Shown here: piece by piece, positions 1-5,382 of the stretch
Layout: every line of letters starts with the position of its first letter
Numbering within the stretch: position 1 is the first letter of the stretch
Source of the DNA: a virus
Taxonomy: Duplodnaviria > Heunggongvirae > Uroviricota > Caudoviricetes
Strand: one strand, 5' to 3'
DNA: 5,382 bases
Virus record (IMG/VR): IMGVR_UViG_2563366830_000003
Translations under genes and position numbers: made by a program
The notes under the pieces: generated by a model
Database searches by the model: none
Told to the model about the DNA's origin: nothing
The model's input: the letters and a program-made list of their open reading frames with translations, nothing else

Positions 1-15
1 GAAAGGCTGGGCCAT
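1..15 (-). CDS. Probable 5' end of the next gene in the operon (continues beyond left edge); product unknown, by position a candidate large internal core/ejection protein
   Basis: ATG at 15..13 is preceded by GGAGGAG (23..17), and the frame reads M-A-Q-P-F to the window edge. Only 5 codons are visible, so this is tentative. Confidence 0.3.
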
Positions 16-16
16 A

Positions 17-23
17 CTCCTCC
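17..23 (-). promoter_or_regulatory. Shine-Dalgarno (GGAGGAG) for the putative downstream gene
   Basis: Minus-strand sequence is CTGCCGGAGGAGTATGGCC; the spacer to the ATG is short (1-3 nt depending on which G's pair). Confidence 0.3.
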
Positions 24-83
24 GGCAGAAGCAGAAAAAGCTTATTATGCTTCCATCGGAAACGATGATCTGGCAGCCTGAGT

Positions 84-1523
84 TCACAGATAAAATACTC
101 TCCAGGAAACCCGGGGCGGTTCATTCTGCATTTCTTCTTGCTGCTGAGAAGGAGGTAAATACTGAATTGCCTGGAATATTCTCGCGTTATCAATCGCTAT
201 ATCCAGTTGATTGATTATTTTATCTGCATTTTTTCCATACCCCCTGATGATAGTCTCCTGAGCCGGTATATAATCTGGAACCTCACCGTTATATAGCTGG
301 GCCATGGTGTTATTAATAGCTGGCTCAAGCTGTTCTAATATTAACTTCCTTTGCTTTTCTATCTGACTATTAGCAAGGTTATCTATTTGATAAATAGTCA
401 GCGGATCCATTCCAGTTTTATTTTTTCTATATCGGGAAAGCCACCCTTGTGTTTCTGATGGAAGATTTCGGATAAATTCTTCTTCTGATATTTCACCTTT
501 ACGCGGATCACCGACTTTGGCGATCAGTTTATCCACGTTACCCATCCCCCAGTTATATGCTGCTCCGGTCAATATTTCTGAGCCGTACTTACCATACAGT
601 TGATTTACATAGTCACTGGCAAGCATTTCATGCTGTTGTTCGTCCGTAGGGTTGTATTCAACGCCACGTTTGGCCGCCAGTTCTTTCCCTGTGCCCGGCA
701 TTAACTGGTATTTCCCCTGGGCCCTCTCTCCAGAAGATGTTTTCGGTCCTTCAAGAATACTACCATCAGGATTAAAGTGACGATCACCTGATTCAACAAG
801 GCGTATGGCACGCATGTCCATGCCTCCAGAATCATTTTTCTGAAACTGACCATTTAACCATCCTTCCGGGTTAGCAGCGGCATAATTCTTCGCCCGCATT
901 TCTGTGGCACTGCGATCATCACTTTCTATTTCTTCCAGAATGCGTTCTTGTGACCATCCCCTGGCTGCTCCATATCTGGCAATGGCTACCATTCTGGAAT
1001 TTCTGGCTAAAGTGGCAGTTTGCGGGTCATTCCAGGCATCCGCTTCATTTTGTATCCATAATTTTCTCGTTGCCTGATATTGCTCATCTTCATAGGCATT
1101 TGTCTGCCCTATCTCATGTCTGAGAACTCCAGTACTGAACTGAATTTTCTGTGTTCTGGCTTGTTGCAAAAACATATTTCTTGCTGCTTCATCAGTCAAT
1201 GAAGCAGCTATTTCTTCCACATCCTGATCAAATCCAGATATGTACTCTTGCCCCTTACCAATCGCATTTTTGCCTTGTTGTGCATAAAAACCGGTTTGAG
1301 GGTTATAAAGACGTTCATTGCTGCGCTGATTAAGCTGAAGGATGGCATCCTGAGACAATGCAACATTCGCTTTCTGCCTGGCTTCACCATATGCCACCGC
1401 ATACTGATCTGCGACATTCGCCAGCACCTGACCTGCTTGAGGAACATCGAAGATCTGAAAACCACCGGTTTGCACACCACGACTTTGCACCTGGCGTCCG
1501 GATGTAGTAGGAACAACAGGCAT
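84..1523 (-). CDS. Virion-associated lytic transglycosylase (SLT domain) protein, 479 aa; candidate peptidoglycan-degrading ejection protein
   Basis: ATG at 1523..1521 with AGGAGG at 1535..1530 (6-nt spacer) and a TGATG overlap with the upstream gene. All three family-1 lytic transglycosylase motifs are present in order: catalytic E-S in RLVESGDRHFNP (E244, + coords 792..794), GKYQLMPGT (690..716), and AAYNWG (546..563). Confidence 0.9.
   Translation of the reverse strand: MPVVPTTSGRQVQSRGVQTGGFQIFDVPQAGQVLANVADQYAVAYGEARQKANVALSQDAILQLNQRSNERLYNPQTGFYAQQGKNAIGKGQEYISGFDQDVEEIAASLTDEAARNMFLQQARTQKIQFSTGVLRHEIGQTNAYEDEQYQATRKLWIQNEADAWNDPQTATLARNSRMVAIARYGAARGWSQERILEEIESDDRSATEMRAKNYAAANPEGWLNGQFQKNDSGGMDMRAIRLVESGDRHFNPDGSILEGPKTSSGERAQGKYQLMPGTGKELAAKRGVEYNPTDEQQHEMLASDYVNQLYGKYGSEILTGAAYNWGMGNVDKLIAKVGDPRKGEISEEEFIRNLPSETQGWLSRYRKNKTGMDPLTIYQIDNLANSQIEKQRKLILEQLEPAINNTMAQLYNGEVPDYIPAQETIIRGYGKNADKIINQLDIAIDNARIFQAIQYLPPSQQQEEMQNEPPRVSWRVFYL
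516..818 (-). other. SLT / lysozyme-like catalytic domain within the 479-aa protein (about residues 236-336)
   Basis: Motif spacing ES-x4-NP ... G-x-YQLMPGT ... AYNWG matches the Slt70/MltE-type catalytic core. Domain boundaries are approximate. Confidence 0.8.
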
Positions 1524-2098
1524 CAGTAACCTCCTATTTTGAATCGGGAGTCAGAATTCATAAAACCTGAGTTAGATAACATTGGCGTCCCACCACTAGA
1601 TGTACTTCCTTTAGAGAACGGACTCCACGTCCCACCAAACATCTGGTACGCACCGTATGCCTTCAGAGGCGCGGTGAGCAATGTTGTTGCTGCTCCCACA
1701 TTCCCCTGTTTACGGGCTGAACTGGCTTCTGCTTTATAGTTGGCAGCCTGAACCTGATAACCGTAAGCCTCGCGTTGCGCGTTATTCACCGTCGTCAGCG
1801 AATCAAGAGCGCCAAACTGGGCAGTGTCGCCAAATATATCCAGCGCGTTACCTGTAGATAAATCAGCGCCGGTAGCCCCCATTGTCGCTGCCTGTGTACC
1901 AAGCCGCTGTCGGGTCTCTCTGCGCCGTTGCTCAGCTTCAGCGTTACCTCTGTTTATTGCATCATTTGCCTGAGCAGTGGCTATATCTGCGTTCGCTTCT
2001 GCAACCTTCGAGGCATACTTTCCCTGTTGGTACTGGGTGTATGCCTGAATGCCACTCATGGCGAGCATTGCGCCACCAGCAATAACCGGATCGCACAT
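1523..2098 (-). CDS. Internal virion / ejection protein B-like (T7 gp14-like), 191 aa, with N-terminal membrane segment
   Basis: ATG at 2098..2096 with GGAGAG 7 nt upstream, inside the 3' end of the preceding gene. The N-terminus MCDPVIAGGAMLAMSGIQAY is hydrophobic and resembles the MC-hydrophobic-SG.QA start I recall for T7 gp14. The rest is Ala/Gln/Gly/Thr/Asn-rich low-complexity sequence. Its TGA overlaps the next ATG. Confidence 0.8.
   Translation of the reverse strand: MCDPVIAGGAMLAMSGIQAYTQYQQGKYASKVAEANADIATAQANDAINRGNAEAEQRRRETRQRLGTQAATMGATGADLSTGNALDIFGDTAQFGALDSLTTVNNAQREAYGYQVQAANYKAEASSARKQGNVGAATTLLTAPLKAYGAYQMFGGTWSPFSKGSTSSGGTPMLSNSGFMNSDSRFKIGGY
1530..1535 (-). promoter_or_regulatory. 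Shine-Dalgarno (AGGAGG) for the SLT-protein gene, embedded in the 3' end of the upstream gene
   Basis: Minus-strand sequence is AAAATAGGAGGTTACTGATG; the SD lies 6 nt before the ATG and is encoded by the Gly-Gly-Tyr codons of the preceding protein, indicating translational coupling. Confidence 0.6.
2039..2089 (-). other. Predicted N-terminal transmembrane/hydrophobic helix of the gp14-like protein (about residues 4-20)
   Basis: The stretch VIAGGAMLAMSGIQAYT is uncharged and hydrophobic, and is followed by polar low-complexity sequence. Confidence 0.5.
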
Positions 2099-2562
2099 TA
2101 TTTTCTCTCCATGTGAAATCTGTGGAAATTAAGACCAAGAGCACCATAAGGCGCGGCTTCTTCAAGCCTGAATCCAAGCCAGTGCAGCCATGCTTTGGCA
2201 ACATGGTTTCGCTCGTCGACGTAGTTTTCCAGGCGCGGATAAACTGCCAGCATCTGCTGCAATACAGGGCGGCAGTGGCGAAGAAATGTCTTCTGATATT
2301 TTTCAATACGGCTGGTTCCTACCAGCCAGGGCGTACCATTGCCACCGATCATTGACGCCGGAGATACGCCAAACATGGTTACCAGTTCTCCGTTCGCAAA
2401 TCCTGACCAGGCCATAGTCGAAGTACGCAGACCAACACGCAGCGCATCTTCGGTAGTCATCAGTGATACCGCATACAGTTCGTCAATATCAGCCTGACGA
2501 ACATCCGGCAAAATCATCTGAAGATGCTCTTCGGTTGCGGGAATAATTTGAACATCGATCAT
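2098..2562 (-). CDS. Hypothetical virion protein in the gp13 (internal virion protein A) position, 154 aa; possible acyl/acetyltransferase-like fold (speculative)
   Basis: ATG at 2562..2560 overlaps the nozzle gene's TGA; its TAA at 2100..2098 overlaps the next ATG. The C-terminal segment NHVAKAWLHWLGFRLEE fits the loose N..A...Y/W...GF pattern seen at GNAT C-termini. No other motif was recognised. Confidence 0.75.
   Translation of the reverse strand: MIDVQIIPATEEHLQMILPDVRQADIDELYAVSLMTTEDALRVGLRTSTMAWSGFANGELVTMFGVSPASMIGGNGTPWLVGTSRIEKYQKTFLRHCRPVLQQMLAVYPRLENYVDERNHVAKAWLHWLGFRLEEAAPYGALGLNFHRFHMERK
2105..2110 (-). promoter_or_regulatory. Shine-Dalgarno (GGAGAG) for the gp14-like gene
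   Basis: Minus-strand sequence is CACATGGAGAGAAAATAATG, with a 7-nt spacer to the ATG at 2098..2096. Confidence 0.5.
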
Positions 2563-5033
2563 CAGAACCCACCAACAGTAAGGCGAGGAATAACGGCAAG
2601 AACAGACAGCGGCAACGGATCAAGCTGACGGATTTTTACACGTCCGTTTTTGCCCCAGTTACTGTCCAGTTTCACTTCTACTTTTCCGGTAGCATCATCA
2701 ACAGGATCATCGTAGAACTCGAATTCACGCTGTGGATATTCGTACCATTTACCGCCGGGCGTAGTCGCCCAGATGCCGCGACTGGCATTCACAACCAGAG
2801 TAACGGACGGGATCACCTGTTTTTTGTCCAGCAGCGTTTCCTGTCCGTTAATGTTGATATCCAGTGTTTCGAATTCAGCAGTTATTGGCAGGCCGATGTG
2901 CACTACAGCCCCCGGAGATTCCAGTGTGACGGCACCTCCGGAAACAACTTTCTGTGGCTCAACATTCGCATCAGAAAGAATGTTTACGGTCTGTCCTTCA
3001 AGATGAGACAGGCCTCCAAATGTCCGGCGCGCCATCTGCCAGTTCGTGGTGGCCGTATTCCTGAGGGATGGCGGGACGTTCCTGTTAGCACGAACCACTA
3101 CTGCGGTATTGCTGGTTACAGAAATAATGTCGCAACGTAATTCTTTTGACACCTCATCGCCAGTATCAGGATCAGTTCCGGTATAAGGGAACTGTAGTTG
3201 CGCGCCGACATCACTACTGGTGAAGTACGCACCACCAGAAACACTGATTGTATATTCCGCGCGGTAATCCCATTCGCCAGAACCACCAGTGATGATCATC
3301 GTTCTGTCAGACGTATTTCTTCCATCATAGCTAAGGCCAGAATCAACAAAGAAAGCATCTTCATCGCTGGTAAATAAACGGCTGGACAGTCGCTCGATGT
3401 ATCTCACTGTTTGCCCGTTAACGGTTCGGTTAACGACGAAATACACCGCATCTTCATTGCCTTCGCTGATACTGCATGTGCTTTCATATTTTCCGGTACT
3501 GGACTGTGGTGCCCATGCAAAAACCTGTTGATCACGCAAATAGGTCATCACCAGTAATTTACCGTCATCACGAATGCAGAAGGCGCTGGAGTAAGGGACA
3601 ATAGAGAAGCACCAGTCAACAATGCTGTGCTTCTGAAAAAGATGATTGGCAAGGATGGTCAGGTCGTTCCCCTGATAGCCGTCAACATCGAATGAGTAGG
3701 CCAGATCACGGACAACACTGCCTTTCTCCTGGACGAACAGAGCAATATTCGCCACGGCAATTGGTGGGACATTGCTCGAGCCATTTGATCCCTGAGAGCT
3801 GAATGCAAATGATGATGGGGTAAGCACTTTGTTCTGGTCGCCGGTGATGACGTACTCACCTCCGGAAGTCAGCGCCACCAGCGAACCGACATCAATCAGG
3901 TGGCGGATCTCATTAACCTGACGCCCGGCATAGGTGTAGATAATTCTGTCGTCATCCTGCGTAGGATTGCTTTTGCCAAAATCCTTATAATCCCCGGTAC
4001 GGCTGACCCAGATAGTCTGAGGGAACGCAGTCGATGCGGCGAAGTAAAGACGTTGTTGATAATAAACAACAGTGCCAGGATAACCATTAACACTGTTCCA
4101 GGCATATTTAGCCCATTTATAGCTGGCATTATCCTCGCCAACTACCTGCGAAGGGATATAGGAAATCACCTCGGCAGTTGCAGTAGTTCCATTTGCAGCA
4201 GTGATACGGGCAATGCCAAAACCACTGTGCAGATATTCCCACTCAATGCCAGTATCATCATCACCGGATCCGCCCCAGCCATCCCATGATGTGCCTTCTG
4301 TATGCGAAGGGCGCAAAGTGCCTGTTTTGCCTACTGTAACGGCGCGATAGTAGTTACTGTCTGCACGGCGAATATCGCCAATTGACGTACTCTTACTGGT
4401 TTCCCATACCGGCACAGAATCCACTGCAGGCTGTTCCAGATAGAACAATTTGCCTACCTGCTCCGCGCCAAAAATAGAGGCGCTTGCCGTTAACGTAATT
4501 GTCCCGGTGCTGGCGCTGGCATAAACCGTCACTGACTCGTCAATATTGATATCTTCAAATGGTCCGTTCTTCGTTACCACATCAACCAGTTGCCAGTTGT
4601 CATGCGCATAGCGACGCAACTCTTTCGGCGGGTATGCCGGATGAACAAGCGTAAGCACGTCGGCGCTTTGCGTGAATTTAATTCGGAACAGATCGGCTTC
4701 AGTATATGGCGTGGAAATTTCATAAATAACATTGCTGCTGTTCAGCACCAACGCACCATCTTTGATAACGCGCATGTACTGGTGTCCGAACTCCAGAGCA
4801 TAAGTCTGAACCGTCGAGAACTGGAACGGGATCAGGCGGCATTTCCGATTTGGGTATTTGGCGGCACCGACAAAACGCGTACCAGGTCGATTCTCAACTC
4901 CGCCATACTGCCGCACGATAAAGTTATCGCACTTGCGCAATGCCACCTGGTACTTCGCCATGTCAATACGACCGTACAACGACGGTCCAATCTCACCACC
5001 GGCAAAGCTGGGCTGGATCCAACTGATAGCCAT
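2562..5033 (-). CDS. Tail tubular protein B / nozzle-like protein (T7 gp12-like), 823 aa
   Basis: Long uninterrupted ORF with ATG at 5033..5031 overlapping the upstream stop (TGATG) and a GAGG about 9 nt upstream. The N-terminus MAISWIQPSFAGGEIGPS, and later segments such as GGLSHLEGQTVNIL and KLLVMTYLRDQQVFAWAP, resemble T7 gp12 as I recall it. The size is in the 790-830 aa range typical of podovirus nozzle proteins. Confidence 0.8.
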   Translation of the reverse strand: MAISWIQPSFAGGEIGPSLYGRIDMAKYQVALRKCDNFIVRQYGGVENRPGTRFVGAAKYPNRKCRLIPFQFSTVQTYALEFGHQYMRVIKDGALVLNSSNVIYEISTPYTEADLFRIKFTQSADVLTLVHPAYPPKELRRYAHDNWQLVDVVTKNGPFEDINIDESVTVYASASTGTITLTASASIFGAEQVGKLFYLEQPAVDSVPVWETSKSTSIGDIRRADSNYYRAVTVGKTGTLRPSHTEGTSWDGWGGSGDDDTGIEWEYLHSGFGIARITAANGTTATAEVISYIPSQVVGEDNASYKWAKYAWNSVNGYPGTVVYYQQRLYFAASTAFPQTIWVSRTGDYKDFGKSNPTQDDDRIIYTYAGRQVNEIRHLIDVGSLVALTSGGEYVITGDQNKVLTPSSFAFSSQGSNGSSNVPPIAVANIALFVQEKGSVVRDLAYSFDVDGYQGNDLTILANHLFQKHSIVDWCFSIVPYSSAFCIRDDGKLLVMTYLRDQQVFAWAPQSSTGKYESTCSISEGNEDAVYFVVNRTVNGQTVRYIERLSSRLFTSDEDAFFVDSGLSYDGRNTSDRTMIITGGSGEWDYRAEYTISVSGGAYFTSSDVGAQLQFPYTGTDPDTGDEVSKELRCDIISVTSNTAVVVRANRNVPPSLRNTATTNWQMARRTFGGLSHLEGQTVNILSDANVEPQKVVSGGAVTLESPGAVVHIGLPITAEFETLDININGQETLLDKKQVIPSVTLVVNASRGIWATTPGGKWYEYPQREFEFYDDPVDDATGKVEVKLDSNWGKNGRVKIRQLDPLPLSVLAVIPRLTVGGF

Positions 5034-5382
5034 CAGGACAACCTCGCAATGGTAAACTCGTCAACCGGTGGCAGTGGTTCCTGTGATTCATTCTGGCTAT
5101 GCGAGCCAGCACTAAGAATCACGCGATTGTACATATTGAGGGCAAACGTACCGAGGTCTGCATTCCCAGTCAGCGCCATGTTAATAGCTGCCGCAAGACG
5201 CCAGGCCAACGCCTCCATAAAAATGGCATCAAACATGTTCACATCTGTAACGCGAGAGACATACTTGAGCCATGCCTGAGGCTGGTCTGAACCGCCCCGG
5301 GAATCCTGGAGACTAAACTTCCTGAGAAAGAGGTAAACAGGATGACTAAAAATACTCGTTTTTCCCCCGAAGTCCGTCAACG
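5033..5382 (-). CDS. Partial CDS, 3' portion only (5' end beyond right edge); virion structural protein, by position a candidate head-tail adaptor / tail tubular protein A-like
   Basis: Reading frame is open from the window edge to a TGA at 5035..5033 that overlaps the ATG of the next gene. The leading 'M' in the ORF track is a TTG at the window edge, not a real start. Function is inferred only from position immediately upstream of the nozzle-like gene; I could not confirm a gp11-like motif. Confidence 0.5.
   Translation of the reverse strand, partial: LTDFGGKTSIFSHPVYLFLRKFSLQDSRGGSDQPQAWLKYVSRVTDVNMFDAIFMEALAWRLAAAINMALTGNADLGTFALNMYNRVILSAGSHSQNESQEPLPPVDEFTIARLS

Follow-up and report, generated by a model that had tools for sequence, protein, structure and literature searches.

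Gene content and boundaries of the locus

The window, by which we mean the entire 5,382-nucleotide stretch of DNA analysed here (viral record IMGVR_UViG_2563366830_000003), carries on its minus strand a block of podovirus-type tail and ejection genes that is bounded at both ends by parts of insertion sequences (IS). Five open reading frames (ORFs) follow one another, the last of them extending from position 5033 to the window end. They encode, in the order of transcription, the end of a tail adaptor, a tail nozzle, a small GNAT-fold protein, an internal virion protein of the T7 gp14 family and the first part of an SLT-bearing ejection protein (Table 1). A preliminary description of this DNA had recognised five consecutive minus-strand genes, which the ORF coordinates corroborate, and had read them as a podovirus tail and ejection block, a reading upheld by the nozzle and gp14 matches reported below and by the neighbouring capsid genes. 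It had overlooked, however, that the two outer ORFs are chimeric with IS DNA (1–123 and 5288–5382). The three inner genes are intact, and their products are 98.7–100% identical to those of complete prophages.

Table 1. Positions of the genes and insertion-sequence features in the window (aa, amino acids; nt, nucleotides)
Feature	Position	Strand	Evidence or remark
IS copy 2, last 123 nt, IS629/IS1203-type, IS3 family	1–123	+	Matches the right end of the L001 IS (1311 bp) at 99.2% identity
Stop codon (TGA) of transposase orfB, IS copy 2	79–81	+	
Right terminal inverted repeat, IS copy 2	83–123		Pairs with 5288–5328
Chimeric 479-aa ORF, SLT-bearing ejection protein, orthologue of epsilon15 gp15	84–1523	−	124–1523 correspond to residues 1–466 of 905
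IS-read tail of the 479-aa ORF	84–123	−	13 codons and stop
Target-site duplication of IS copy 2, TTC (coding strand GAA)	124–126		GAA on both sides of the IS in L006, once in the uninterrupted L001 gene
Internal virion protein, T7 gp14 family, intact, 191 aa, orthologue of epsilon15 gp14	1523–2098	−	Pfam PF24072, phrog_418
GNAT-fold protein, intact, 154 aa, orthologue of epsilon15 gp13, in the position of T7 gp13 (IVP-A)	2098–2562	−	AlphaFold2, Foldseek, phrog_308
Tail nozzle (tubular tail protein B), intact, 823 aa, orthologue of epsilon15 gp12	2562–5033	−	8CK1_A, 9EFK_M, phrog_376
Adaptor (tubular tail protein A) fragment, last 84 codons (residues 118–201 of 201 aa), orthologue of epsilon15 gp11	5033–5287	−	
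Target-site duplication of IS copy 1, GGTC (coding strand GACC)	5284–5287		Two copies in L005, before and after the IS; a single GACC where the gene is uninterrupted
IS copy 1, first 95 nt, same IS type and orientation, inside the adaptor gene	5288–5382	+	100% identical to the left IS end in L001
Left inverted repeat, IS copy 1	5288–5328		
Start codon of transposase orfA, IS copy 1	5342–5344	+	

Insertion sequences interrupt the adaptor and ejection genes

Megablast comparison with phages and E. coli genomes aligned phage-like DNA only to positions 124–5289 of the window, and the outer ~120 and ~95 bases matched thousands of IS records annotated as IS629, IS1203 or IS3-family transposase. The window ends are 97% identical to the annotated IS629 of Stx2 phage F422 and, by direct alignment, 99–100% identical to the 1311-bp copy present in a related prophage (L001). 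The partial copy at 1–123 lies in the SLT gene and that at 5288–5382 in the adaptor gene, both antisense to the phage genes, and their terminal inverted repeats measure 41 nt. IS629 and IS1203 elements of the IS3 family have in common with these ends the terminal sequence TGAACCGCCCCGGG..., target-site duplications of 3–4 bp and a frequent occurrence in E. coli prophages; unlike them, the window holds only 123 and 95 nt of two copies, whose interiors are represented by N in the source assembly.

The whole window is 100% identical (5382/5382 bases) to positions 6142–11523 of locus L005, on the 1.57-Mb scaffold KE137258.1 (GCA_000408725.1), where this interval is flanked by N runs at 4927–6141 and 11524–13233. 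An exact search with the 479-aa product retrieved two contigs only, KE137258.1 and KE137271.1 (GCA_000408745.1, 1.39 Mb), and NCBI lists this chimera under E. coli KTE130 as A1YG_03316. The window corresponds to a single contig in the scaffolded short-read assembly of this strain, broken at IS repeats. Across the first gap, beyond the other end of the IS, come the 118 initial codons that the adaptor gene lacks in the window (L005 4470–4824); across the second gap in locus L006, the other IS end is likewise followed by the remainder of the SLT gene.

Downstream of the window, the next ejection gene, which encodes 1004 aa in relatives, is interrupted by a third IS copy of this type (L006 14554–14648 and 16229–16308; L005 11524–13313). 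Each insertion proved, on comparison with the uninterrupted genes, to have a target-site duplication of its own; the repeated bases are GACC for the adaptor gene, GAA for the SLT gene and AAC for the 1004-aa gene. These separate and clean duplications show three independent simple transpositions and not assembly chimeras. L005 lacks the ~2.5 kb that separates IS copy 2 from IS copy 3, owing either to a deletion by IS–IS recombination or to an unplaced contig.

Elements of the IS629 type are present in most of the E. coli genomes searched. The same IS type has been inserted independently in related prophages, within the Bbp16 cement gene of strain N25 and the nozzle gene of 2011C_4247 (L001 18164–19474 and L004 18145–19456). 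Because other E. coli strains thus hold independent insertions in the same prophage family, IS629-type inactivation of epsilon15/phiV10-type prophages recurs. Two apparent matches with 100% coverage of the window (H31 and H32) were rejected, as they consist of unrelated IS copies located elsewhere in related prophages and joined by the search tool, and do not represent the same arrangement.

The window belongs to a defective prophage of a temperate phage group

The phage-derived part of the window has close relatives among Escherichia phages. Positions 124–5289 are 97.7% identical to Escherichia phage TL-2011b, and positions 1617–5289 are 98.4% and 97.8% identical to vB_EcoP_ZX5 and phiV10, respectively; DNA identity to Salmonella phage epsilon15, of the genus Uetakevirus, is ~75%. 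Upstream in the KTE130 scaffold lie genes for a portal protein (Head-tail_con), Bbp19, a protease, a GP7-type major capsid protein and a Bbp16 cement protein. The flanking genes, which the preliminary description had proposed to inspect, are accordingly phage capsid genes, and they rule out the secretion-system or fimbrial context that had been considered there as a possible setting.

These relatives belong to a group long recognised as temperate. The TL-2011b record has an integrase gene, experiments with vB_EcoP_ZX5 demonstrated its lysogeny, with integration at the 3' end of guaA (PMC9782041), and epsilon15 is described as a well-characterised temperate phage (PMC12391199). Furthermore, a complete 40-kb relative in E. 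coli APEC E18055 carries a tyrosine integrase that adjoins guaA on one side, with lysis genes on the other. The module was found at an identity of at least 98% in 42 of 5,426 complete E. coli genomes. Neither the left nor the right IS/phage junction occurs in these 5,426 genomes, and the left junction had no exact match among the IMG/VR viral contigs or the species-representative genomes.

On account of its location in a 1.57-Mb E. coli scaffold and its near-identity to temperate Uetakevirus phages, we assign the window, with a probability of about 94%, to an epsilon15/phiV10-type (Uetakevirus) temperate podovirus prophage that lies in the chromosome of E. coli KTE130 and is defective through IS insertions. 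The choice between lytic phage and prophage, which the preliminary description had left undecided, is thereby settled in favour of a defective prophage of a temperate group. The same description had expected a T7-like structural module to be uncommon in a temperate element; epsilon15 (PMC12391199), ZX5 (PMC9782041) and the integrase of TL-2011b contradict this expectation.

Nozzle and adaptor proteins of the tail

The 823-aa protein was identified as a tail nozzle through a match of nearly its entire length (residues 2–822) to 8CK1_A, annotated as 'Tail Nozzle', with an E-value of 9.5e-217 and ~50% identity; 8CK1 was assigned to Cobetia phage Carin-1 by a tblastn search with its sequence. Additional matches were obtained to the nozzle of the Legionella element or phage LME-1 (9EFK_M, E 3.3e-16) and to phrog_376 ('tail protein'). 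The nozzle family is very large, comprising 18,291 representative clusters at E <= 0.001; one nozzle cluster at 90% identity contains 4,579 member sequences.

The relationship to T7 gp12 is more distant. Neither the single nozzle sequence nor a shallow profile of 17 close homologues matched T7 gp12 (hhalign probability 0.1), and adaptor and nozzle single sequences displayed no direct similarity to their T7 counterparts. A profile built from 57 nozzle sequences matched 'Tail tubular protein B' (9k09_U, 6e-11) and 'nozzle gp13' (23sh_T, 1.7e-4), and aligned over 114 columns with residues 349–466 of T7 gp12 with moderate significance (hhalign E 5.7e-5, probability 66%). This region falls within the central domain of T7 gp12 (residues 354–556) that Hardies et al. 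described as conserved between the T7 and epsilon15 groups by comparison of hidden Markov models (HMM–HMM E<1e-10; PMC4819975). The earlier designation of the 823-aa protein as nozzle-like is thus confirmed by the full-length match to 8CK1_A, with a weak reach of the profile to T7 gp12.

The complete adaptor gene is not in the window, since it is split by IS copy 1 with duplication of its target GACC; the 5' part of the gene lies on the far side of this IS, and the rest of the outermost window ORF is IS sequence. The remaining fragment is 97.6–98.8% identical to residues 118–201 of full-length proteins. The full-length orthologue encoded in L001 matched 8CK1_E, 'Connector Protein' (4e-26), and the LME-1 adaptor 9EFK_T (3.3e-5), and the GenBank note for epsilon15 gp11 reports an HHpred match to T7 tail tubular protein A (gp11). 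The outermost ORF, previously listed as an adaptor candidate, therefore retains its identity as an adaptor through the matches of its orthologue, and is limited to the last 84 codons of the gene, the rest being IS DNA.

The GNAT-fold protein in the position of T7 gp13

The AlphaFold2 model of the 154-aa protein reached a predicted local distance difference test (pLDDT) value of 94.3, and all 50 of the Foldseek PDB matches listed for it were annotated as GNAT-family or related N-acetyltransferases, with template modelling (TM) scores of 0.52–0.76. This fold agrees with the GenBank note that describes epsilon15 gp13 as a GNAT acetyltransferase. The protein also matched phrog_308 (E 4e-63). PDB sequence searches returned nothing significant for either the protein or its profile. 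Its gene sits between the nozzle and gp14 genes, as T7 gp13 does, and the two proteins aligned weakly by hhalign (E 3.4e-4, probability 38%, 61 columns); the score against Pfam PF11090 stayed under the gathering cut-off (13.6 bits vs 25), and 3 of 31 family members reached E<0.01.

T7 gp13 (IVP-A) is itself reported to match acetyltransferases and is needed for morphogenesis but is not kept in virions (PMC4819975). The 154-aa GNAT-fold protein is probably a morphogenesis factor as well. Within its family, a motif-B-like N119-x-x-A122...G130-F131 is invariant, and no recognisable acetyl-CoA pyrophosphate loop (R/Q-x-x-G-x-G/A) follows strand 4, where SRIEKY is found instead. Judged by these residues, the protein may not be catalytically active. 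The small GNAT-fold protein is conserved between the nozzle and gp14 genes from T7 (gp13) to the epsilon15-like phages, but a truly enzymatic role for it, in which it would acetylate a virion or ejection protein while particles are assembled instead of being a passive factor, appears unlikely to us.

The gp14-like protein and the truncated SLT protein

The 191-aa protein exceeded the cut-off of the Pfam family T7_gp14 (PF24072) with 33.7 bits vs 27, its residues 1–167 aligning with positions 1–182 of the 187-position profile, and it matched phrog_418 with an E-value of 1e-72. It is 100% identical to a protein of a complete prophage, and identical proteins bear the PGAP label 'virion core protein, T7 gp14 family'. 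A PDB sequence search retrieved nothing for this protein, and an NCBIfam search with six proteins gave no match for any of them. The Pfam match endorses the earlier assignment as gp14-like. In T7, the ejection channel crosses the outer membrane through a pore made of gp14.

The 3' end of the gp14-like gene contains a mosaic boundary. TL-2011b is unaligned across window positions 1535–1616, and its gp14-like protein has 181 aa vs 191 and diverges after residue 170. Moreover, phiV10, ZX5 and most other phage relatives match the window from position 1617 upward only; therefore, phiV10-type phages have a different gene in the SLT/gp15 position.

The SLT protein preserves residues 1–466, which are 98.7% identical to residues 1–466 of the 905-aa TL-2011b protein, and the 479-aa ORF matched positions 1–470 of the 900 in phrog_1044. 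The Pfam SLT domain (PF01464) was detected with an E-value of 5.3e-8 (32.9 bits vs a cut-off of 21.3) in the middle of the protein, at about residues 235–345. The motifs read in the sequence, E244-S245, GKYQLM and AYN at 322, indicate that the SLT domain and its predicted catalytic Glu-Ser are kept. Hence the SLT assignment made previously stands as regards the domain, and the protein itself is incomplete, with residues 1–466 of 905 followed by IS codons.

In the preliminary description, the gene order had been likened to that of T7 genes 11 to 16. The order of functions is indeed the same, but the SLT protein occupies the gp15 position and the gp16 homologue is outside the window. In epsilon15, the protein published as homologous to T7 gp16 is gp17 (PMC4819975), whose E. 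coli counterpart is the 1004-aa gene located beyond the window. K1E-type phages likewise carry muralytic domains at the gp15 position (PMC8954989).

The truncated products of this locus were also encountered in protein resources. The family phrog_19141 aligns with residues 1–479 over its 479-position profile, including the 13 IS-derived residues; phrog_35446, a 67-position profile, matches the adaptor fragment from an internal Met (window 5033–5236); and the 479-aa chimera has a RefSeq entry of its own (WP_016248088.1). As these three entries match IS-truncated products, pseudogene fragments of the KTE130 prophage are now represented among protein families as though they were genuine proteins.

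Coupled gene junctions

At each of the four junctions between the ORFs, the stop and start codons have one base in common, so that the coordinates of adjoining ORFs meet in a single position. Reading on the coding strand gave CTGATG at 1523, 2562 and 5033 and ATAATG at 2098, in accordance with the TGATG and TAATG sequences reported earlier for these positions. The overlaps had been given as 4 nt, which does not agree with the single shared base: a stop/start overlap of the ATGA type comprises 4 nt, and one of the TGATG or TAATG type 1 nt. Purine-rich stretches resembling Shine-Dalgarno sequences (AGGAGG, GGAGAG, GGTGGG, GAGG) are found 5–8 nt upstream of the starts and within the preceding gene, where the preliminary description had also placed them.

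The same type of junction is annotated in TL-2011b (L002 17958, 20675, 21220, 21684, 24155 and 24760) and, with one exception, in epsilon15. Its recurrence in both phages marks it as no product of chance but a conserved trait of a coupled operon that is longer than the block seen here. Promoter-like and terminator-like sites were not enriched inside the block (4 vs 7.4 expected and 8 vs 4.2 expected, respectively), and an Rfam search of the window matched no family. The proposal of a tightly coupled operon is thus sustained with respect to its conserved 1-nt junctions; it fails with respect to function, as both outer genes are truncated by IS. An ORF of 229 aa on the plus strand (4590–5279) runs opposite the nozzle and adaptor genes; nothing was found to mark it as a gene, and it is most likely a by-product of coding-strand composition.

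Comparison with known tail and ejection modules

The closest known systems are those of TL-2011b, vB_EcoP_ZX5 and phiV10, which share with the window 97.7–98.4% DNA identity, the gene order, the 1-nt overlaps, a nozzle of 823 aa and a GNAT-fold protein of 154 aa, whereas IS insertions disrupt the adaptor and SLT genes of the window; phiV10-type phages differ in addition by the other gene in the SLT/gp15 position. The guaA integration site of ZX5 (PMC9782041) is also that of the complete prophage relatives.

Epsilon15 gp11–gp15 form an orthologous block, with protein identities to the window of 88%, 88%, 64%, 73% and 42%, respectively, and the GenBank annotations of gp11 (tail protein), gp13 (GNAT acetyltransferase) and gp15 (putative lytic transglycosylase) fit this correspondence. 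In this temperate phage, the tail hub is hexameric and the core gives rise to a trans-periplasmic tube (PMC12391199). Epsilon15 differs from the window in its 75% DNA identity and in carrying gp16 and gp17 after gp15, in contrast to the single 1004-aa gene of the E. coli phages.

Carin-1 (8CK1) and LME-1 (9EFK) resemble the window in the full length of the nozzle, and the adaptor matches as well. The LME-1 tail consists of a dodecameric adaptor and a hexameric nozzle, is closely similar to that of T7 and has Carin-1 as its nearest structure (PMC12407071). Hosts and remaining genes are different, and the solved structures are those of the Carin-1 and LME-1 proteins, not of the E. coli proteins themselves.

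With genes 11–16 of T7 (gp11 adaptor, gp12 nozzle, gp13, and the core proteins gp14, gp15 and gp16), the window has in common the order of functions, an acetyltransferase-like protein in the gp13 position (T7 gp13 and the 154-aa protein alike; PMC4819975) and a gp14-family match over the Pfam cut-off. The two differ in that SLT resides in the gp15-position protein here and not at the N-terminus of gp16, in that T7 genes have short spacers and their own promoters in place of the 1-nt overlaps, and in that T7 is virulent.

The homology of epsilon15 gp12, gp13 and gp17 to T7 gp12, gp13 and gp16 was published in 2016 (PMC4819975), and Table 2 of that work lists the T7-like module also in BPP-1, F116-like phages and Stx phages. 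The tail and ejection module is, therefore, already known: its occurrence in temperate elements has long been described for epsilon15, phiV10 and BPP-1, and recently for LME-1 too. Only the IS insertions, three in number, and the artefact at the contig ends are particular to this locus.

Proposed function and inactivation of the module

By analogy with T7, Carin-1, LME-1 and epsilon15, the adaptor would dock on the portal as a 12-mer, and the hexameric nozzle would form the tail tube below it and close the channel, with the small GNAT-fold protein presumably aiding assembly. The internal core packed in the head would consist of the gp14-like protein together with the SLT protein and another large (gp16/17-like) protein; these would be ejected at infection, forming a channel through the outer membrane, the peptidoglycan, which SLT would cut, and the inner membrane. 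Positions 124–5287 would represent a piece of a long, translationally coupled late operon. What the sequence shows is that three IS629/IS1203-type copies have transposed independently into the adaptor, SLT and next large ejection genes, all of them antisense; the assembler was unable to resolve these repeats, and the contig therefore starts and ends within two IS copies.

Because the adaptor is split and two ejection proteins are truncated, we infer that the KTE130 prophage would make no infectious particles. The three intact genes, in turn, are still 99–100% identical to their counterparts in live phages, which indicates that the inactivation is recent. The significance of the locus lies mainly in its correct annotation, given that the window ends are IS repeats at contig breaks and the ORFs there are chimeric pseudogene products; it also illustrates cleanly the loss of a young prophage to IS629-type elements, inserted independently three times.

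Weighing of alternative explanations

Several points speak against the assignment to a defective Uetakevirus prophage or qualify it. The interiors of the IS copies are N-gaps in both scaffolds, and neither the completeness of these copies nor the KTE130 structure between copies 2 and 3 is visible. The integrase is known from relatives only, where it lies ~20 kb away, and the KTE130 flanks covered amount to 10 kb; loss of inducibility is predicted from gene disruption. As for the tail, the AlphaFold2 model of the nozzle was unusable (17 close homologues; mean pLDDT 39, predicted TM-score (pTM) 0.28), and the link of the nozzle to T7 gp12 draws on a moderate hhalign score together with published HMM–HMM comparisons.

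Those N-filled interiors, along with the near-identity of the inner three genes to live-phage genes, would also suit an intact and inducible prophage whose apparent IS ends arose in assembly or scaffolding, through repeat ends attached to the contig in error. We regard this as very unlikely, since the same junctions appear in two separate assemblies, elements of the IS629 type are common in the E. coli genomes searched, and, unlike chimeric joins, the insertions display clean 3–4-bp target-site duplications with gene halves that resume exactly beyond the gap. Slightly less probable still is that the 5.2-kb segment bracketed by IS is a composite transposon or a domesticated module, in which the intact nozzle, GNAT-fold and gp14-like genes serve the host or move together. 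Two IS copies in the same orientation around three intact genes are what such a unit would show, and the absence from L005 of the sequence separating copies 2 and 3 is consistent with active IS–IS recombination; but each IS has a target-site duplication of its own, which places the segment in its original phage context and not in a transposed one. Neither junction recurs in the complete E. coli genomes, the left one is without an exact match in the viral and species-representative collections, and the intact genes separated from live phage alleles too recently for decay. Neither this composite-unit proposal nor the enzymatic reading of the GNAT-fold protein concerns this window in particular.

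A virulent T7-like (Autographiviridae) phage as the source of the window would account for the gene order resembling T7 11–16 and for the Pfam T7_gp14 match. Its probability is nevertheless negligible: the sequence lies within a 1.57-Mb bacterial scaffold, its 98% identity is to temperate Uetakevirus phages and not to T7, and the flanking capsid genes (GP7, Bbp16, Bbp19) are of the epsilon15/BPP-1 type. In addition, the relatives carry integrase and repressor-type regulator genes, with no phage RNA polymerase annotated among them. A virulent T7-like origin was consequently rejected on the grounds of the phage identity, the bacterial scaffold and the APEC E18055 relative. The prophage assignment, with inactivation by three IS insertions, is the one that we retain.

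Additional observations

The sizes of the epsilon15 ejection proteins differ between sources. Table 1 of PMC8954989 lists gp11 (229 aa), gp12 (499 aa) and gp13 (708 aa), which disagrees with the epsilon15 GenBank record AY150271.2 (L007), where gp14 has 180 aa, gp15 842 aa, gp16 634 aa and gp17 918 aa; the sizes in PMC8954989 are closer to those of the P22-like phages in the same table. Finally, related prophages contain a tRNA-Arg gene between the terminase and portal genes (L001 24040–24116, L004 27357–27430 and L009 30727–30803).

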